Positions 23,601 through 57,300 of a stretch of DNA of 64,000 nucleotides are shown in pieces (positions within the stretch are counted from its first letter, which is position 1; every line of letters begins with the position of its first letter). The notes beneath the pieces are model-generated. The model made no database searches. It worked only from the letters and a program-made list of their open reading frames with translations, and was not told the DNA's origin. The DNA is taken from the NCBI GenBank assembly GCA_000934665.2, contig KZ537984.1:1-64000 (forward strand), given 5' to 3'. Position numbers and translations under genes: made by a program. Source of the DNA: Catajapyx aquilonaris (taxonomy: Eukaryota).

Positions 23601-26600
23601 ACTTGCCCCCCCCCCCCTTTTAATTTAACAATATATATTGTGATAGTTGTATAAGAAAATAAAAGCACAGTATACGCCCATCATGTTCCCAAAATTTACC
23701 CTCACCCATATATACCCAGTTTGCGTCACCATTTCCCCCGACCGGACAAATTAATGTGACGGTAACTCGCAGCGATGTAATCTGTGAAATATTAACACCC
23801 CACTGATGAGGACACTGCTGCTGGCTGGGAGTGGAGAGAAAAAAAGAATGGATGTCCTGAGGCTGGGATCCGGATATTAAGAGAAAGCGACAAAGAACTG
23901 CGGCAAAGGGGGGTTGAAGGGGGGGGGGGGNGGGGGAAGGAGAAAAAAAAGGACTGGGGGGAGACCAAAATGGACTTGGTTGATCTCTCTGGAGGCGAAT
24001 GTTAAATTGGCTCTATTGTTCGTGGAACCCGATAGAATTTTAAATTTGTATTCAGTCCTTCACCTCCTCTGTTTTCTCTCCGAAAAGGCCCCATTCATGA
24101 GGAAACGAATGGAATAGGTCGCGTGTCCATCTGATAAAGGTTAGTTCATTCTTTATGGCCGATTTGGCGGTCAGTCCCAACACTACAAGTCACTGAATCC
24201 TGTAGGTACTATCTCTCGACAATGAAGCAAAAAATACCCTGTTTTTTTGTATAAAAAAGAGAGAGAATTTGCACAACTGCATGATGTGAAAAGCTCCATG
24301 TGATGACGCGTTTAAAACCGCCCGCAGAGAAGAATCAATACGACGTGGAATCCGTAATGTTTCGTGCCGCATTTATGCGACCCATCACGACATATCTTTT
24401 GGCACACATAACAAGCGCTTTGCATCAGCAATGCCGTTTAATTCAGGTTAGGTACAAAAGTGGGCCAATTTATACAGTATACAGTATACCATGCTGTAAT
24501 TGCTGACTTTTCTTCCAGAAATATTTCAGGGTGGTTTTTTTAATGTTCTTCAACTCTTCTCGAGAAAATAGAGGCTACTAATAATCGTCAATTGTGAGCA
24601 AATTACCTTGCCATAGTGAACAATATACCCGCAGAATAATGACAAAGAAGCCAATCTGTAATTAAAACAAATTAACATCTGTTTGCTCCTGGGTTTCAAG
24701 TTCCTCCATTTGGAAGGTTGCCCCATCCATTCAAATATGGACACTCCAACGGATCCGGTCATGCAAGCAAACTGTGCAATCACAGCCCAGGTTCCCCCAA
24801 ATGAAGTTGAGTAGGTCCGGACCATTTTTTTTCTCTATCTGTATGCTGCTGCTGGAGCATAAGAACCCCCCTGCTTTTTAAGGCAAGTCCATTTGTTCTT
24901 CTGGAAAGCACCATCCGTTCATCCCGCCCTGACGACCGCCCACAGTTCAACCCAAAGCCTTCAAGAATAAAATAAAGCACTTCCATCCCGAGGCTGGTAT
25001 GAGGAACCCGCCAAAATGAAAGATTTGCATCCGGAATAATCACCTACGCATCAGCCCAAGAATGCTGGTTGGAACTCGGCTTATGCACCTATATTCTGCT
25101 GTGTGTTTCTTAAACCATTTCCGTCCAAAACTGGCCGACAAATTGAAAGACAGAGAATCGGAATTCCGGATAGCCGTGATTTAGTGTAAGACCGCGTTTG
25201 TGAGCGGTTAGCTCGCTTCTGCCGTTGCAACTGTGGATTCATGGCTCCGAAATCGTAAAATACAACACTAATAAACGACACCACAGGGGCAGTCGCCTTT
25301 TTATTGACTGAACACCCCCCATGTTTTTTTTGTGTGTTGTGTGTTTGTGTGGAGAGGATGGGAGGAGATGGAAGGGTTCTCAACAAAAGGGGAGCTTCCC
25401 CCCTCCGGAATTGGGAACATTCTCGTGAGTGTACGCTTTCGGTGATTTCAGGGCTCATTTCGCCACCTCCGGTACGAACAAATTGTTTTGCAATGAGGAA
25501 TTTCACACCTGGCCGACCATAAGAACGAAATGCGTTATGGATACAGTCACGCTTGCCCTTACTCTCTCGCATTGTGCGGCGAATTTAATACATTAACTGC
25601 CGACAATGCCGAAAAATTTTCGCAAAAAGGCATATCATTTGGTTGTCTCGACACCGGCCCATTTTTTGAACCAAACTTTTCGTATACAAACAAGTAATGC
25701 AAACGCCACGTGTCGTATAGTCTAATGAATTAATATCTGCAAATTTGCACATAAGCAATCTTTGATCTACAGTACAATACTGTACAGTCTAATTATCGAA
25801 ATCCTCTGCAGGCGTCAATAACGTCCTTTCAAAAAAAATCCAATATCAAACAGCACTGCATTATTTTCCATCAAAGAACACTGTTCCTCATTCATCTTTA
25901 CATGATCAAAGTCAGAGAGGGTTGCGTCAAAATTTGCTTCCCATCAGGAAAGAAGGGGGAGAATGAAGAGCAGGGGTTGAAACTAAAAGAGGTACAATAA
26001 TTGTCAAGTGGGTTTGAAGCTGAGGGGAAGGTAATAAACATAGTCAGCAGCAGCCGCCTACTAACTATATGCGCGCGACCCTTTTCAAATATTTAATATC
26101 CTTCAGGATGAACCGGACCGGAGTGGAAATGTTCCCATGAATCAACATGCAACGAGATGTATACGTATTATAATCAGAGTAATTTACAATGCATTAGTTA
26201 GGACTTCCTGGGAAGCGGTATGCCTGGTGGGGGTTATATGCTCGAAGGCTCACAAAATTGGCATTATGTAACCATGCGAATAAGCCTAGGGAGGGGGGTG
26301 CTGACCTTAACCTCTACCCTCCCAACACCCTCCACGACACACCATAATAATAAGGCCGGACCCGTCATTCAGATCTTGCAAATGAATGACATTCATCGCC
26401 GCCTGCGATTCTTCTGCCCTATGGGAGTATGAAGAGAGAGGAGGGGGAAGGGGGGGGGGAAGCTCCGTAATCCCAACATTGTTCCTCCTCAGGTCGGCCA
26501 TTCAAGGGGCCATATATGCAGCAGGAACATGACAGATGTCAGATATCTATTGCAGATAGCCGTGCAAGAGTATAATAACAAGTCTGGCTCCGTGGCACAG

Positions 26601-48673: not shown

Positions 48674-51212
48674 AATTCTGTGTGCTGCGAGAGACAGGAA
48701 ATGCCATGGGGAATACATGAATCGAGCAAACAGGTTATCGCGACACAATAGCTACTGGAAATTGGGAGGATTGGCCCGAGAGAGATGAGCCAGTCGCAGC
48801 AGCAGTGAAAGTGGAGAGATAGATGAGGTTGCTCTAACCGCCTAGGGCCTGGAAATGGGTAGAGTGGGGAGATGGGAGGGGGGGTGGTCAAAAAAAGGGG
48901 GGATCAATTTCCCCCCATTGTCACCAACCAGTGTAATTGGGTCTTGTTCGCCGGCAGTAATATTATCCCGAATGATATTCTGATGGGCAGCAGGCAGTGA
49001 TGCTGCTTCATCCTGCGGGGGTCTCTCCCTGTGAAAAGGACTCCGGTGACAAAAGGCCCTCCCACCCCAATTTTTGTGGAGGACGCCCCCCCTGCCGAAT
49101 CGGGACAATGGCCGCCTAGAGAAAGAAAGACGCGCTTCTGTTCCCTTGGACCTCTTCTTTTACCAATCTGAGGCCTCTGCTGGGAGATAAAAATTGGGAA
49201 GCTGGCCCGGCTTTTTGACTGGGAGATTGGACGAGCAAAAGGATGATGATGATGATTCCGCCGCCTTTTCATTGTGGCCAACTCGCCATCTCCATCCTAT
49301 TGGCATCTTATATACGAAAGAAAAAGATGATGGGGGGCAGAGAGGCTGGAGAGAGGAGGATGGGGCTTTTGTTGCAAAATCTGGCTTCGGTTCGCGTCTT
49401 CGGCTCGAATCCAAATCTAAAAGGCGATGATGATTCTATGCTTGGGTAGGGTATGCCATCAGTTGCCCATACGCTCATGTAAGATTTTTTTATAGCCAAG
49501 ACTTTGTGGCAGCCAGGATATTCGCAATATCTGCCTATACAGACCTATATAAAATGATACTATACCGTAGAAACAATGGATATAATCAGCACACTGTTGC
49601 CAACTTGATGTCACAGTGCCCTCTTTGCATGGATTTTACTGTATACACACTATACAAACAGAAGAGTACATACGCTATGCTTAGAGTACAGGTACTGCAC
49701 ATTATATATATACAGTATAGCGAGTGAAGTATTAATTTGTAGCATTGCCCTGCAGTGCTTTCAAAGGCCTGTATTAATTTTTCTCCATAGGTGTTATAAT
49801 AATACCAATTAAACAATACTCATTTCTATCACATCCGAGGTGACATATGAGCCCGTTTTTGACCTACAGTATATTAGTGAATGACTATAGTGTTAATGAC
49901 CTGAGGCCTGATAAACAAGCGCCTGCAAGACCGCCGTTACAGTCACCCATAACGTGCAGTTAGCCACGAGGAGTTTGGCTCAAATAGTAGCCCAAGTATA
50001 ATCTCTTTAATCTTTGTAATAAACTTATGCGTGTGTGCAAATGTAATAGTAGCATTTTACAGTTAGCAAAATGGCAAAAGTATATACGCAAATGTCACCC
50101 GAGAGAGATAATTACTCCAAATTTACCCTCGTGATGTGAGAATGGCCTAACGTCAGTGTTATTTTTTCTGCGCACTCTGTAATAAAACAACAAGTATTTC
50201 ACGACATTACAATAATGGTGTGACACTGATTGCATTACTGTTGGTTCAGTTTTTCGAAGAAAATTGTAGGACTTTTTGCCACTTTTTGACCTGAAAAGTG
50301 TATAAACTATAAACCTTATAGATTGCAATGGTATACTGTACGTATATTATAAGTGGAATGAATTTTGCCAAAATATCCAGTTCATTTCAGTTTGCTTCTA
50401 CCACCAATTATGTGCTATGCGCATAAACATTATGTAGGCCTATAATAATTATTTATTACAAACCGCACGTCTACACTGAAGTGCTGCATCATACACTTGG
50501 TAGTGCACATGTTTAAAAAGGCAAGCGTAAAACAATGGAGCTGAGTCACTTCGCACCTGATGAATTCGAGGCCTTTCTATTATTTTGTACATTTCTGAAA
50601 GAATATGTAATGGAAATCCCTCGTTACAGAATATTACACATGCAAATGAAATTACCGTCAGGCATGTCGTCCTGGAGTATTAGATTACTGATAACCTCAA
50701 TCTGTTACATTATAGTCACAGTCTGAACTGTTAAGAAGTCAATAAAAGCCATCAGTTCAAGCAATCTTTATTACAAAAATAATGGGGCTGTACCATATCA
50801 AAGCATCAAGCGAGTGTCGTGATCTACGGGCAACTGGATGCTGCCTGACTTTTGCTGGTATCGTGTTCGCACCAGCACCAGCAGTGTAAGACATTACCCT
50901 GTCGAGTACCCCCATTCAATAATTACTAATTTAGTAAGGAAGCGGGGGGATTAGAATGGGGCTCACTCTGGCTCGTCTCCTTCCCCACGGTACCATTGCT
51001 TTCATAAATTACTGCGGATGGCTCTTAATTGCGTCAAAAACGCCGGAGGGTAAGACATAATCGAGGAAGATACAAGGGGAATATAAAGGGGCTGGTGTGG
51101 ATTCGATGGGTTTGATCACACATTAGGCTAATGAAGAGACAAAACGGAGAGACATCCTTATAAATTCGCATTAGGCCTCCAGAAGAGGGAAACATGAACA
51201 AGTCCAATCTGC

Positions 51213-51218
51213 TTTATT
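51213..51218 (-). terminator. candidate polyadenylation signal AATAAA overlapping the stop codon of the RhoGAP-like gene
   Basis: The minus strand reads CAA-TAA-A; TAA at 51216-51214 is the stop. Confidence 0.4.
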
Positions 51219-52653
51219 GCATTTGGGGGAAGTCTAATGTCACCGAGGGAACCTGGAAGCACTTATCGTTCTCCTCCATTGGCACATGCTCGGGTGCTCC
51301 CTTTGTGTCCATGTTCTCGTTGCTGTCACTCCGTTCAAACGCTTCCATGTCCTGAGTTGGCGACATCAATTCCTCGACCTTCCCCATCACTGCACTTGCT
51401 TCAGACATCTGCACCTCCTCGGAAGTACGCAAATAAACTGCGATTTCCTTCTCCTGAATACTGGCAAAACTGCACTCATCAAAAGGGGGTCTCTCCACAC
51501 GTTCTTCAGACGAATTAGCCAGCGAGAAGTTCCCTCCGTTTTCAACGCTAGAGTCTAACAACGAAACCGAACTGCCCGTGAGCTCCTTCTGCTGCTGAAG
51601 GAAACCATTTTCTATGATGAACGCGTCCACCTCGCTGATCGTGATGCTTAGACTGCCAGGACACAGATCTGCAGAAGCAGACTTGCGACCCGTCACCAAC
51701 GAAGCATCGTCAGTTGCGAAAGTCCAGTCCCTAACATCATCTGTTGCGTGAGTCCCTTCTTCAACATCTTCTGTCACGAAAATCCCGTCTCCAACTTCGT
51801 CCGCTACGAAAGTCCCGTCTCCAACATCGTCCGTTGCGAGAGTCCCGCCTCCAAATTCCTCCGCGGCCTTCTCTGGATCCTTCTTATCCGCCTGAGGGTT
51901 GTCACCAATCTCGTTCACGACGTGCACACGGACGGTACCTTCTTGCTCGTCCGGGTTGCTTCCTTCTCCTCCTCCGCTCACGTGCACTTCGACCCTAACC
52001 TGGTGAACAATCTCACCGTCTTCGTCCTCCTCATTCGTGCCAGACGAGTCCGTCGCATACCCGTCTTCCTCTTGCGATTTGCGCGCTTCAGGGTACAAGG
52101 TGCGTACGATCGGCTGCTCTCGTGGACTTACCTCCGGAGAGGCCACGTCTTTCCAGCAGTACACGAATCCAGGAGGATCTTCTGGCAGAGCCGTCGGCGA
52201 CTCTTCGATCGACGCACCGCTGGTAATCCAAGTGCAATTGGTGGAACCCTGGGTACCATGGAATGGGGTAAACTCGTGCATATGGTGGCACAGCACGCAG
52301 CACTTGTCCTGCGTGGCGCCCTTGAGCGCGTCGCATTTCCTCTTCATCACGTTGCGCTTCCTCTTCAGCTCGAAGGCGCTCTTCCTCAAACCCAGCCAGG
52401 CCTGGATGCGGCACCAGAAGGTGCTGCGGGACTTCTTCTTCTTCTTTTTCGTTGTCGTCTCCTGATTCTTCTGCGTCCCGTCTCCCGAGCCCCTCCGGAA
52501 GAGTTGGGTGCAGCTCCGGACAAGGGAGTTCGTCTTATTCTTCGCGACAGAATCCTTCGGGAAGTACGGCTCCGAGAGGAACTCGCGATTCTGGGCGACG
52601 CTGCCGCCTACTGTCAGTACATTAGGTACGTCGATCGACGCACACGTCGAGGG
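51214..52653 (-). CDS. divergent RhoGAP-domain protein, terminal coding exon (479 aa: polybasic segment, Cys/His cluster, acidic low-complexity tail)
   Basis: Acceptor tattttgtag|CCC at 52654/52653, phase 0. The 1440-nt open frame includes ORF 51214..52389 plus 88 upstream codons (PSTCASIDVPNV...TTTKKKKKKSRSTFWCRIQAWLG). Composition is GC-rich and coding-like. Confidence 0.9.
   Translation of the reverse strand, partial: PSTCASIDVPNVLTVGGSVAQNREFLSEPYFPKDSVAKNKTNSLVRSCTQLFRRGSGDGTQKNQETTTKKKKKKSRSTFWCRIQAWLGLRKSAFELKRKRNVMKRKCDALKGATQDKCCVLCHHMHEFTPFHGTQGSTNCTWITSGASIEESPTALPEDPPGFVYCWKDVASPEVSPREQPIVRTLYPEARKSQEEDGYATDSSGTNEEDEDGEIVHQVRVEVHVSGGGEGSNPDEQEGTVRVHVVNEIGDNPQADKKDPEKAAEEFGGGTLATDDVGDGTFVADEVGDGIFVTEDVEEGTHATDDVRDWTFATDDASLVTGRKSASADLCPGSLSITISEVDAFIIENGFLQQQKELTGSSVSLLDSSVENGGNFSLANSSEERVERPPFDECSFASIQEKEIAVYLRTSEEVQMSEASAVMGKVEELMSPTQDMEAFERSDSNENMDTKGAPEHVPMEENDKCFQVPSVTLDFPQMQ
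51705..51865 (-). repeat. coding minisatellite, ~5 x 30 bp (10-aa acidic repeats)
   Basis: Units start at 51721, 51751, 51781, 51811 and 51841 (a[g/a]tcc...). The protein reads EEFGGGTLAT DDVGDGTFVA DEVGDGIFVT EDVEEGTHAT DDVRDWTFAT DD. Confidence 0.9.
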
Positions 52654-52744
52654 CTACAAAATAGTGTATATAACCTACTGTAAATCGCAATTTATGATTT
52701 TGCACATTTGTTCAGCAAGCAACTAATCGAATGGAAATAGTAAC

Positions 52745-52921
52745 CTCTGCTAATAAGCACGGCATCTCTTCCACTTCTTGCAGGACTTCGAGACGCTTGT
52801 GGTAGCTCGGCATCGCGCTCAGGAGACGCGGATCCTCCGGCACGGACATGACTATGTCATTAAAGATCAACTGATGGTGGATCACCAAGAAGCGAACCAG
52901 CGCGTTTCTCAGGACGCAATC
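52745..52921 (-). CDS. divergent RhoGAP-domain protein, internal exon (last helix of the domain)
   Basis: Acceptor ttcccatcag|GAT and donor GAG|gttact, phase 0/0, 59 codons: DCVLRNALVRFLVIHHQLIFNDIVMSVPEDPRLLSAMPSYHKRLEVLQEVEEMPCLLAE. This matches the RhoGAP C-terminal pattern 'vv..li.h...iF'. Confidence 0.85.
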
Positions 52922-53007
52922 CTGATGGGAAGGGAAATGTAGGGAGAATGTGCATACCGTATTGTTACTCTGTGGTCAGATAAAAGGGAAAAAAGACATT
53001 CTCCTAC

Positions 53008-53200
53008 GTTGTGATTCAGGTTTTGCTTCGAGGTGTGAGGACGCAGCATGGCAGGTGAGAGGAATCTGGACAGGACACGCAGGCGAGACCAGGGACTGCG
53101 ACTGTGCCTGCTCTTGACCGGCATCTGGGATATGTCGCTCAGGAGGGACATGAGTTCCTTCAGGAGCATCAGGGATTGAGGGGTGCAAAAGCTCAGCGGC
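53008..53200 (-). CDS. divergent RhoGAP-domain protein, internal exon
   Basis: Acceptor ttgttatacag|G (phase 2) and donor AAC|gtagga (phase 0). (R)PLSFCTPQSLMLLKELMSLLSDISQMPVKSRHSRSPWSRLRVLSRFLSPAMLRPHTSKQNLNHN aligns to 'LP..n..lL..L..fL..v....NLavvfgPnllrp'. Confidence 0.85.
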
Positions 53201-53266
53201 CTGTATAACAATGAGTCGGGCTCGTAAAATAGAAGAAATTATTCTCAAACCCATTGCCCTGCTGAC

Positions 53267-53601
53267 CTTCGGATATCTTGCAGAAGGGTTCCGCAAATGC
53301 CGCCTTGCACCTGCCTAAGTGAAATGAGGCATGAGTTGCCGATAAGGATCCAGAATGGGTACAAGTCTTCTGTCGGTAGCTTGTCCGAGCCCAGGATTGA
53401 GACGGGCAGGTGCTTCAGGTAGTTTCGAAGGAGGCACAGGAGGGCCCCGAAGGTCGAGGTATCTACGTATCGGCGAGGGAGAGTTCCCTTCTCCAAATGT
53501 CGCTTCAACCAAACCTTCCTGGTGAAGGATGATCTGCGTCGAAACTCTTTTGCCGGATCGTCCACTGTTAATGCCTGACTTCTTATGTTGTCAATTATGA
53601 C
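53267..53601 (-). CDS. divergent RhoGAP-domain protein, exon with the arginine-finger region
   Basis: Acceptor ttaactctgtcag|GTC (phase 0) and donor AAG|gtcagc (phase 2). VIIDNIRSQALTVDDPAKEFRRRSSFTRKVWLKRHLEKG...GALLCLLRNYLKHLPVSILGSDKLPTEDLYPFWI matches 'ci..ie..gl..egifR.sg....v..lk..ld.g...aslLK.ylReLPepll...ly..fi'. Confidence 0.88.
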
Positions 53602-53678
53602 CTGACAGAGTTAATAAATCCTGCTGGTTATGCTGCTCACTCATTTGAAAGTGCAAACTATGGATTTGTGAGGCTTAC

Positions 53679-53742
53679 TTTCAAAACCGGGTGAATGCTT
53701 ATGCAGTCGTACATCTCACTGAGAGGTTTCCCGAACTCCAGT
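53679..53742 (-). CDS. divergent RhoGAP-domain protein, exon with the domain N-terminal motif
   Basis: Acceptor atgcattag|A (phase 2) and donor AAA|gtaagc (phase 0). LEFGKPLSEMYDCISIHPVLK matches the RhoGAP 'FG.pL......vP.vl' signature. Confidence 0.85.
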
Positions 53743-54063
53743 CTAATGCATGCCACAAAATGTAGATCAATCAATAACATAAATAAAGTCTATTACGTAT
53801 GCATAGACATTATAAAGAACAAGCTGCATCTGCTCATGACGATTAACAATAATATCATGGGTAAAGGATTCACATTTTGGCCTTCAATGACAACACACAG
53901 TCTGCTACAATTCAGTGAAATTATGGAACATTACAATTTAAAATAACAAAGCGGGCAAATGCTAAGGTGGATTAGCATTCTGGCCAATAATGACAAACAG
54001 TATACGGTATTGCGATTAAGAAAACTTAAGAGTTCAAGTTAGTGGCGTAATCATTATTCATAC

Positions 54064-54091
54064 CTGAGGTCTTCCATGATGGGAATGGAAG
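54064..54091 (-). CDS. 28-nt micro-exon of the RhoGAP-like gene, containing an in-frame ATG (54077; MEDLR)
   Basis: taatttcag|CTTCCATTCCCATCATGGAAGACCTCAG|gtatga. The phase 2 donor matches the phase 2 acceptor at 53742 (AG+A = Arg). The ATG is in an ATCATGG context. Confidence 0.65.
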
Positions 54092-54178
54092 CTGAAATTA
54101 TTCGAAAATAATTTGTTGATAATATTAGAGCGACACCCTAATTTCTGATAATCAACGAGTAAAATGTCTCGCTTATAC

Positions 54179-54317
54179 CTGAAGTTCGACCAATTATTGA
54201 AACGCTTGCTGACATGTGCTCAGTTGAACTTATCTCCCAAACCGTACAATCCCTGGAACCAGAGGCGAGATTGGTTCCAAGACACTGCCAACGCGTGCAG
54301 TACTCATAAGCTGCCAT
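54179..54317 (-). CDS. possible first coding exon of the RhoGAP-like gene (MAAYEYCTRWQCLGTNLASGSRDCTVWEISSTEHMSASVSIIGRTS)
   Basis: ATG at 54317 in an ACCATGG context lies within ORF 54138..54407. Donor CAG|gtataa is phase 1, in frame with the micro-exon across an 87-nt intron. This could instead be 5' UTR. Confidence 0.45.
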
Positions 54318-57300
54318 GGTAACTCGCAAACAATCATCTAACAACAATGGCCTAGAATCAGGTGTATACAAGCCCGAGTGTACTGTTTCTGACCCTGAGT
54401 AAAACAATCGTCTTTGGGTCTCCGGCTCGAGTTTCGGGGCATAAATATAGTCAAAAAATTCCAGGCATCAATCCAAAAAACCGAGTGGAATTCAGCTCAT
54501 TCCTGCCAGCTCGACATAAAAGTCGATGTTGTCGTTCGTAATGCTCCAAAATTCCGAACCCGATCTAGATTTCCTATTGATTTCTTCTCTCCTTGGTCCT
54601 CGTCCCTTGCTGCTATCATCTGATTATGTCGGAGATCAAGTGGAGAAGAGAGAAAGAATGCGATCCTTCTCTCCTTTTCGTGTCATCCAGATGCCATTGC
54701 AGCAGTTTAAAAACGAGGTTTGGAGCAGTCAGCTGCACAGCATGGCATATTATGGCTCCAAGTGTGTTATTTTGATCAAGTGTCAGGAAAAGGTCTGCAG
54801 ATAATGGACATTCAGTGTGAATTAGGAATAAGTATGTTTGTCGCAGCTTTCAGGATGATTGATGAATAACTTAATGTAAATATTAAAATACCGTATATTA
54901 GACTGACGAAGATATTTACTGACTCACCGCGTGTGTAAATAAATCACTCCAAATTGTCATTTGCAATAAAATTTTCGCTTTAGAAAATTGAATGCGACCA
55001 TATATTTTCTTTAACGTACGATCCGCAGAATTTCACTTTGTGCGTCGAGTTAAAATGAGCAGTTTTCTCTCCAACGCATCTGTTTTCTTCTCTGAAATAA
55101 AGTCGTCTATATACAACCACAGCGTATGCAAATGACGAGAATGCTATTTTCTCTTGTGTTCCGCAGGTTTATTCGTTCACTGAAGAATTTAGTTTCAAAC
55201 GACGCGGTCTCAGACCAGAGGAAATTCCTTCCTTGGCGAATTGCCTTCTTTGACTTTAGTTAACCTTCCAATCTCATTGCCAATTGAGAATCCTCCGAAA
55301 AGAGCGACTTTTGGAAATAGGCAGCTTTTTTTCCCTCCCTTTCTTCTTCTAACTGTAAGAACGTTCTCTCTACTTCCACAATCACGCCGACTACTTTGCT
55401 GCCACATCATACAAGCCTTGGTTGCATCTTCTAACTTCGTAGTTTATCAGTTCGCCCCAAAATTAGCCCAGATCAAAGCAAGTTGCAGATTTTCAAAAAT
55501 CCACATGTACAAGAGTATAATCCGGAGGGAAAATCCCACCAAGGGCCATATATAGGATGAAGGTGAGTCGAGTTCCACAGCAGTATCAGCGCCCGACTTA
55601 TACAAAAACGGTTTCGTGATTCCAATGGGACTCATTGGAACGGGAACCCATTTGCCTCCAGGGCGGAACCAATTTGTGGGGGAATTGAGGCCCCCCCTGG
55701 CGTAGACAAAAGAGTTGGTACTGATAAATTGTTCCTCAAGAGCTTTGCACCGTATTCCCGCCAGTGCTTATTCCAGTTTGTACTTCGATGATCAAACATA
55801 AGACTTGTATACACACAAGCCCTGATGAGAGGTCCGTCCCATAAGGAAGATATATGCATCGTACAATAATAATAATCTGTCATGAATCCAGATGGAGTTT
55901 TACACGCAAAAAGCAGCTTGTCATTCGTGAGTGTGTACGATCACAATCAAGTGTATGAAATCCCTAAGAAAAGTTGGAAATTCGCTTTTTCCTGTCAGTC
56001 GCACTGCTCGCGATCGAACTGTAACTATTGATCAAATAAGATTTTCCATCTCCCTCTCCCCTATTTTCTTCCCCCATTCTCTTCCCCCCTTTCCCTTGTT
56101 TACCATCGCCCAGCTCTTACATCAAAGTGTTTGCACTACTCCCTGTAACTTAATATATTCCGTCTCAAGTGCCCCCCATCCTGATCCCCACAATATCTGG
56201 AGATGAAATCCATTAAGTTTCCTTCCAAATAATAAGAAATCCCTTTCCTTGTTTTTCAGGCTTTGATCAGTATCACGTGAGAGTTGCTTTCAACTCACCC
56301 GATCCATTCTTATATTGCCATTCCCCCCCCTTCTTTTTTTCCTTAATGATAATAACGCAGCATCACTCTGCATCTTTAATGGTGCGACTTGTCACCTTAT
56401 TATAGCAGGCGAAAATACATTAACTGCAATTTATGCAGCATCCCGTGTGAGCTTTGCAAGGAGCGAGGACCGGGCTACAAATTGGGTCTTTAAATGGTGG
56501 GTCTAATAAATTATTAATTGGAGCAAGCCAATGGAAAATGCTGGAAATGTTCACGCCCCCATGAGCTTAGCATTCGCTCCGATGGCCCCCAGTTGATCTC
56601 ATTCTAACGTCACGCTACAGAGAGTAAGGCGAGCGAAAAACGAACTAAGAAATAAATCAGTCCCCTTATATTCAAGGGGGGACCCCCCTGAGGAGCAGAT
56701 GTGCTCTAATGGACCAACCCCCCTCTGCTGCAATACTCAAGGGTGTCAGCCATTTTCCTCCGGATTATTGCAACTCGTAGTTAGGCGGTCGATATGCAGT
56801 TGTTGCATACGTATATACACAGCCAGGCAAGCGATAATACGTGTCAACATTGCCGGAGCACAACCAGGACTGAACCGCATTACGGAACTAAAGCATTAAT
56901 AAACCTGCCTGTTTAGAAAGCTCTCGTATTTCGGCGATGGATCACTCGTGTATGTACTGTACCTGTCATCGCATTTTCAAGGCAAGTACACAGCACTTCA
57001 CATTGGCCAAGATGCACAAACCTTTCGTGGTAAGAAGTTTAGTATTGGTGGGATGTCCATTGGCTTTTTTTCCTTTCAAATAGGTAAAAGGCTCGCGTCT
57101 TTTACTCCATGAGCAAGTTTCCTTGGACGTCTTGCAGCAAACGCCAAGATCCTGACAAGGCTAACAAACGAAGGCAATAAAAGTCAGAGTAAACGAGAGA
57201 TAGTGGGATCCCATTTCTGATTCTTTTCCCTCCCTGCCACCATTAGCAGGAAACACGACGAGCCAATTGCACTTTGAGAGCTCCGGATTACACCTCTGCG

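Follow-up and report, generated by a model that had tools for sequence, protein, structure and literature searches.

A spliced minus-strand gene of Catajapyx aquilonaris and the highly divergent RhoGAP-type domain predicted for its product

The stretch of DNA analyzed here, referred to below as the window, comprises 64,000 nucleotides (nt) of Catajapyx aquilonaris (assembly GCA_000934665.2, contig KZ537984.1, positions 1 to 64,000). On its minus strand, between positions 51,214 and 54,317, an earlier reading of the letters (the original prediction) had placed a hidden gene of seven GT-AG-bounded exons encoding a highly divergent protein of the RhoGAP (GAP, GTPase-activating protein) fold. We joined the seven exon segments by their coordinates and checked the reading frame by script. 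The segments are 139, 28, 64, 335, 193, 177 and 1440 nt long and sum to 2376 nt, with a GT donor and an AG acceptor at all 12 intron boundaries and compatible phases throughout. The joined frame encodes 791 amino acids (aa); the only stop among its 792 codons is the terminal one, and there is no internal stop or frameshift across the six introns (87, 321, 77, 66, 86 and 91 nt). The coding sequence counted from the ATG at 54077 is 2223 nt long, in frame, and encodes 740 aa. The exon arithmetic of the original prediction (seven GT-AG exons, total length, phases, both protein lengths and intron sizes) was thus reproduced.

Evidence for coding comes from exon 7 (51214..52653; this and all other exons are on the minus strand), which consists of 479 open codons followed by a stop; the low-complexity tail that it encodes is basic at first and then strongly acidic. 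Exon 7 is the only open reading frame (ORF) of more than 180 aa in the window besides its own antisense shadow, and the longest stop-to-stop ORF outside the locus has 180 aa. When the window was shuffled 200 times in 2-kb blocks with composition preserved, the longest stop-free stretch was 167 codons on average and 252 at most, so the 479 codons of exon 7 are far beyond chance. The guanine-plus-cytosine (GC) content ranged from 0.47 to 0.58 in the exons and from 0.30 to 0.42 in the introns, for a window value of 0.444, and GC content at third codon positions (GC3) was 0.61-0.75 in exons 2-7. A codon score was calculated with a table derived from exon 7 and compared with those of 5000 random segments. 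The score was reached by 154, 79 and 6 of these segments for exons 4, 5 and 6, respectively, and by 511, 602 and 1939 for exons 3, 2 and 1. A codon-usage scan trained on the gene itself, which is circular for the gene's own exons, singled out no other ORF. Frame, splice sites and composition therefore support the hidden spliced gene as originally placed and, judged on these grounds, the locus is a real, intact protein-coding gene, with exons 3-7 as its solid part. A 343-aa frame is open on the plus strand at 51652-52683, antisense to exon 7, and has no Pfam match; we read it as the shadow of the GC-rich coding frame and not as a gene. A candidate poly(A) signal, AATAAA, overlaps the TAA stop (51213..51218, minus strand), the next such hexamer lying at 50772. 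If the first were used, the 3' untranslated region (UTR) would be only about 20 nt long.

The HMMER speed filters hide weak matches, and we therefore built our own RhoGAP profiles and ran the searches with the filters off. The sequence NKMxxxNLxxVFGP, which we take to be a RhoGAP motif, served as a degenerate DNA search pattern and identified 115 metagenome loci, 16 of which had at least 130 open codons upstream and at least 30 downstream. PF00620 matched all 16 of these loci, over its full length in 15 (123-173 bits). Once a partial sequence (L004) and an exact duplicate (L069) had been dropped, 14 sequences remained and formed the first alignment, A1, in which nine of the 16 invariant columns had been fixed beforehand by the search pattern. 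Of 8000 candidates scored with A1, 934 proteins were retrieved at E≤0.001; PF00620 was present in all 120 listed of these proteins, with the full domain in 120 of 120. A second profile was constructed from the 21 sequences (15 proteins and six loci) left by a 60% identity filter. Residues 47-330 of the spliced model were used as the query in the profile tests.

With hhalign, the query matched the 21-sequence alignment with a probability of 88.8% (P 2.5e-6, score 45.2) over 189 columns, residues 13-227 of the query aligning with positions 10-202 of the 217 in the template. A prebuilt profile yielded a score of 41.0 (probability 79%, P 1.5e-5), and A1 by itself a probability of 63.9% (P 6.6e-5, 193 columns). 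Across profiles, the alignment began at query residue 11 or 13 and template position 8 or 10, ended at query residue 227 or 229 and template position 202 or 206, and covered 189-193 columns. By comparison, 277 shuffled sequences scored a mean of 14.0 against the prebuilt profile (standard deviation 2.5, maximum 21.3), none of the top five aligning over more than 37 columns, and the reversed sequence scored 12.9; the z-score of the query over these shuffles was about 10.8. With the filters off, HMMER scored the query at 9.0 bits under the 14-sequence model (E 4.2e-5 for a single target) and at 11.2 bits under the 21-sequence model (E 9.1e-6). Neither score was reached by any of 2000 shuffled sequences (best 4.9 and 6.0 bits, respectively), and the reversed sequence scored -1.7 and -1.8 bits.

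The exons were also tested individually. Exon 3 (53679..53742, AG/GT boundaries), which would begin the RhoGAP-like domain with its FG.PL and IHPVL motifs, aligned with template columns 10-16 (P 0.063), within the 189-193-column alignment. Exon 4 (53267..53601), carrying the candidate arginine finger and LRNYLKHLP in place of LK..LReLP, aligned with columns 47-107 (P 0.0022). Exon 5 (53008..53200), which would supply the middle and late helices and ends in SPAMLRP, the counterpart of GP.lirp, aligned with columns 134-182 (P 0.13); HMMER placed the exon 5 piece on positions 166-204 of the hidden Markov model, with an independent E-value of 7.4e-5. The first 22 residues of exon 6 (52745..52921) correspond in the profile alignment to the last helix of the domain, the remainder being linker, and this exon aligned with columns 187-205 (P 0.012). 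Each of the four exons fell on the proper part of the template, in order, and when joined in pairs (3+4, P 1.1e-3; 5+6, P 4.9e-4) each pair fell on the correct half. The alignment is gap-free across junctions 3/4, 4/5 and 5/6, which supports these three splice predictions. Exon 7, used as a negative control, gave P 0.58 against the RhoGAP template, and four unrelated control profiles made from the same fetched proteins (CRAL-TRIO, PH and PDZ regions, and a downstream tail) remained at noise (P 0.13-0.93). Identity with the template sequences was 16-17%. The RhoGAP-like domain thus delimited would comprise model residues 57-275, spliced across introns 3-5 (52856..53741, minus strand; coordinates converted by hand from the exon table). 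Colinear similarity, borne out by all the controls that were run, is present over the whole GAP domain of about 190 aa, but its significance is moderate, because the RhoGAP family had been picked from this same sequence.

The original prediction had listed RhoGAP motifs in a given order; that order is borne out by the profile alignment, but the NKM..NLA motif is not conserved. For individual residues, A1 columns were equated with p50 numbering by inference from spacing and, as hmmalign aligned only the C-terminal motif, the mapping rests on hhalign. In p50 numbering, the Arg282 finger and Lys319 constitute the signature pair, and Arg323, Asn391, Val394 and Pro398 are binding determinants, according to the part of PMC8305018 dealing with these positions. 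The finger is retained as an arginine (codon 53541-53539, minus strand), which both HMMER and hhalign place in the invariant R48 column of A1. Lys319 is replaced by Arg, with the charge kept, and Arg323 by Lys, and Pro398 is retained. The context of the finger is E-F-R in place of G-I-F/Y-R, and the glycine preceding it is a lysine, accompanied by a three-residue insertion; relative to the RhoGAP template there are insertions both before the finger and after LP.

Several observations weigh against the assignment of this region to the RhoGAP family. The P-values are not blind, and multiplication by the 24736 Pfam models yields E-values of about 0.06-1.6. Scanned one at a time, exons 3-6 matched no Pfam family at E≤10, and neither did a 198-aa read-through (P0001) of exon 4, intron 4 (66 nt, in frame) and exon 5, with X at the two intron stops. 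When aligned with A1 by hhalign, this read-through, which covers exons 4 and 5 only, gave P 0.0036 and a probability of 9%. No RhoGAP was found by phmmer among PDB sequences with exon 4 or the read-through, and the read-through had no match at E≤0.001 among 1.84 billion representative proteins. Its single-sequence AlphaFold2 model had a mean predicted local distance difference test (pLDDT) value of 38.1 and a predicted template modeling (pTM) score of 0.25, with some predicted strands; at this pLDDT, the model provides no structural support for a RhoGAP fold. At the level of residues, the window protein matches only six of the 16 invariant A1 columns and has lost the NKM..NLA motif. Asn391 is replaced by Val and Val394 by Arg in the hhalign mapping, leaving one of the four binding determinants identical (Pro398), in a stretch in which the alignment is of low confidence. 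Finally, exons 1 and 2 and the start codon are weakly supported.

The original prediction had proposed a scan with PF00620, and no match to this model was obtained at E≤10 with single exons 3-7 or the read-through; its gathering score (24.5 bits) was not reached by any of these pieces. The predicted N-terminal RhoGAP domain holds in so far as about 215 aa, with the arginine finger still in place, align colinearly with the whole domain (hhalign P from 2.5e-6 to 6.6e-5); none of the pieces scanned has a match to PF00620. In favor of the original prediction, no orthologue was found in two large protein searches with exon 4, exon 7 and the read-through. Word-indexed protein searches gave nothing for exon 7 (near lengths) or exon 4 (longer lengths), the ESM Atlas contained no usable match for exon 4, and no viral contig matched exon 7. 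Some candidates were rejected: eugenol synthase, the sole PDB sequence matched by the read-through, is a chance match; the best ESM Atlas match of exon 7 (0.76, an arthropod cluster) was below the lead threshold; and two viral-contig matches to exon 4 (L116 2001-2048 and L117 2001-2069, of 16 and 23 residues) are not relatives, because the 8-residue search patterns themselves had served as their seeds.

The 5' end of the gene differs from the rest. The original prediction treated exons 1 and 2 as coding, which composition does not back. Proposed exon 1 (54179..54317, with an ATG at 54317-54315 and a GT donor) has a GC3 of 0.41 and a codon score reached by 1939 of 5000 random segments, and thus lacks a coding signature; proposed exon 2 (54064..54091, AG/GT boundaries), at 28 nt, is too short to be judged by composition. 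Exon 1 is probably a 5'UTR exon or lies outside the gene, and the ATG at 54077-54075 in exon 2 is the likelier start, giving the 740-aa product. Inside proposed intron 2, another ATG (53780-53778) opens directly into the exon 3 frame, no splice being needed (M-L-L-I-D-L-H-F-V-A-C-I-R-L-E-F-G...); as an alternative start, it could make exons 1 and 2 unnecessary. Its surroundings are a poor, AT-rich sequence context. Upstream of the ATG at 54317, the frame stays open for about 59 codons. The stop-to-stop ORF holding proposed exon 1 (54141-54467, minus strand) includes a WD40-like stretch, LASGSRDCTVWEI, and has a weak match to Beta-prop_THOC3 (E 0.0042, 16.6 bits against a cutoff of 305), which is probably due to chance, because about one such match is expected among 261 ORFs.

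Exon 7 contains every tail feature named in the original prediction: the polybasic run, the cluster of Cys and His residues, and the acidic repeats. Its residues 1-130 have an isoelectric point of 10.05 and include a six-lysine run (K6; 52432..52449) and a second basic patch, KRKRNVMKRK (52336-52365), both located in the translation of the minus strand. These are followed by a 34-residue Cys/His cluster with the pattern C-x10-CC-x2-C-HH-x-H ... C (52234..52335, minus strand), which has no Pfam match and may bind metal. Residues 201-479 have an isoelectric point of 4.05. At the protein level, five tandem 30-nt units encoding acidic decapeptide repeats were located at 51700..51854 (minus strand); Tandem Repeats Finder reported 51705-51854, with a period of 30, 5.0 copies and 76% matches. 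Hydropathy over 19 residues peaks at 1.34, which leaves no obvious candidate for a signal or membrane segment. No known family was matched by the tail features in Pfam or the ESM Atlas; for exon 7 as a whole, Pfam gave only a 14-bit dsRBD2 match (E 0.056), with no family at E≤0.01.

Elsewhere in the window, all 261 stop-to-stop ORFs of at least 70 aa were compared with Pfam. Six weak matches (E 5.8e-4 to 5.2e-3) were obtained, none of which reached the gathering score of its family, and these were taken as chance, because about one is expected per 261 queries at E 0.004. No transposon-type Pfam domain was found among these ORFs. Upstream of the gene (53.6-64 kb), 79 shorter minus-strand ORFs (35-69 aa) had no Pfam match at E≤0.05 and hence provided no upstream domain exon. 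Rfam and tRNA scans of the window gave no match, and no repeat of at least 60 nt was detected in it. The window is unusually featureless for a gene-poor eukaryotic region; it contains one N, inside the ORF at 23620-24012. The ORF, Pfam and RNA scans fit the earlier statement that this is the only gene that can be supported in the 64 kb, although genes with short exons and no known domain would escape them.

On balance, we consider it probable that the window holds an intact minus-strand gene whose product carries a highly divergent RhoGAP-type domain plus a long tail; for the N-terminal region taken by itself, a RhoGAP fold is likely. The first 215 or so residues of this product would form a highly divergent, all-helical domain of RhoGAP type, beginning almost at the N-terminus. 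The tail of about 480 residues, encoded by one large exon, would consist of a lysine-rich basic part, the Cys/His cluster and an acidic part with the five decapeptide repeats. By analogy with the family, the domain would bind a Rho-family GTPase in its GTP-bound state at the switch regions, and the retained arginine (codon 53541-53539) would enter the nucleotide pocket and speed GTP hydrolysis. The basic stretch might retain the protein in the nucleus or at acidic membranes. The analysis demonstrates the exon structure, the open frame and a statistical likeness to RhoGAP profiles; the fold, GTPase binding and catalysis are inferred.

As the finger is kept and contact residues have changed, the domain could either be a catalytically active GAP whose contact surface has changed or a pseudoGAP that still binds a GTPase. 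Given the right fold, real GAP activity may be present or absent with about equal likelihood, because two of the four named binding determinants are non-conservatively replaced. The pseudoGAP alternative, in which a catalytically dead RhoGAP fold binds its partner (a Rho-family GTPase or another) but leaves hydrolysis unstimulated, like the p85 BH domain, is one we would entertain only tentatively. The changes from Asn391 to Val and from Val394 to Arg, and the lysine and three-residue insertion in place of the pre-finger glycine, are of the kind to which PMC8305018, in its treatment of p85, attributes inactivity: the loss of binding determinants and of residues around the finger. However, the arginine finger, Pro398 and positive charge at the Lys319 and Arg323 positions are kept, and the pseudoGAPs in the relevant part of the same source lack the arginine; arginine loss is described there as a mark of inactive members, such as ARHGAP36, DEP1/2, FAM13B, OCRL1 and others. 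A more elaborate version of the preferred reading, that of a divergent RhoGAP-type domain with a tail, is rather unlikely as a whole: the protein would be a lineage-restricted orphan derived from a RhoGAP and by now too far drifted for family models to recognize, with the finger kept, the GTPase-contact surface rebuilt (Asn391 to Val, Val394 to Arg) and a new tail module gained (basic run, putative metal-binding Cys/His cluster and acidic decapeptide repeats), perhaps for a new partner or a GAP-independent role.

It is also conceivable, though we think it distinctly doubtful, that the gene is real and its N-terminus is some other helical or partly disordered domain, the RhoGAP likeness being a composition-driven product of chance and motif hunting. 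Standard searches gave no Pfam, PDB or large-library match, the targeted P-values are borderline after correction for about 25,000 families, 10 of the 16 invariant columns differ and the AlphaFold model is uninformative. Such an origin would have to account for a full-length colinear alignment of 189-193 columns standing about 10.8 standard deviations above the 277 shuffles, for two independent halves that each match the correct half of the template, and for an arginine finger and basic pair in the right columns. Moreover, the unrelated profiles stayed at noise and no competing family was seen in the Pfam scans. That the gene does not function, because the locus is not expressed or has recently died or because open frames line up by chance, is highly improbable despite the lack of a match in the protein collections searched, of a recognizable neighbor gene in the 64 kb and of a coding signature in exon 1, given 791 codons without an internal stop or frameshift across six introns, an exon of 479 codons almost twice the shuffle maximum, clear GC3 enrichment with an exon/intron GC contrast, and a likeness to a real protein family that spans four exons.

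If confirmed, the gene would add an unannotated locus to an otherwise empty-looking stretch and illustrate a RhoGAP domain that has diverged past what standard family models can detect. Such a case would help annotation and would help to chart how much change at GTPase-contact residues the GAP fold tolerates. Its reach would be modest: RhoGAPs are numerous and diverse, many have variable tails without domains, and no long-standing question is opened.

The closest comparison is with the RhoGAP family itself (PF00620; prototype p50RhoGAP/ARHGAP1). The window protein resembles it in the length of about 200 aa, the order of the motifs and the colinear alignment, sharing FG.pL, IP.iv, the aromatic-Arg finger, the basic pair in L+..L+.LP, LY, a leucine-rich helix, (G/S)P.l.rP and a terminal hydrophobic-F. 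It differs in being below Pfam detection on the pieces tested, in the loss of NKM..NLA and in the insertions before the finger and after LP. The original prediction did not recognize the architecture as that of any conserved RhoGAP family, but a RhoGAP domain with a variable, domain-less tail is not unusual: in the account given in part of PMC8305018, 13 of 66 human RhoGAPs have no other domain and consist of the GAP domain plus variable termini. The window protein is like these in combining a GAP domain with long regions of no known domain, a likeness drawn from the description of their architecture, and unlike them in its tail, which has the K6 run, the cluster of Cys and His residues and the five acidic decapeptide repeats. 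No relationship in sequence to any of these human proteins was detected, although they were not compared directly. With the pseudoGAPs (ARHGAP36, DEP1/DEP2, FAM13B, OCRL1, INPP5B and the p85 BH domain), as presented in the sections of PMC8305018 concerning them, it has in common a divergent GAP-like domain and lost contact residues. There, p85 is without equivalents of Arg323, Asn391, Val394 and Pro398, of which the window protein loses Asn391 and Val394; most pseudoGAPs in these sections have no arginine finger, whereas the window protein keeps the finger, Pro398 and the basic pair. The venom of parasitoid wasps contains fast-evolving, duplicated RhoGAPs, according to the portion of bioRxiv 10.1101/2023.06.05.543686 relevant here. 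Nothing in the window protein points to venom or secretion and the two are likened by description, but the wasp proteins constitute a precedent for lineage-specific, rapidly diverging proteins derived from RhoGAPs.

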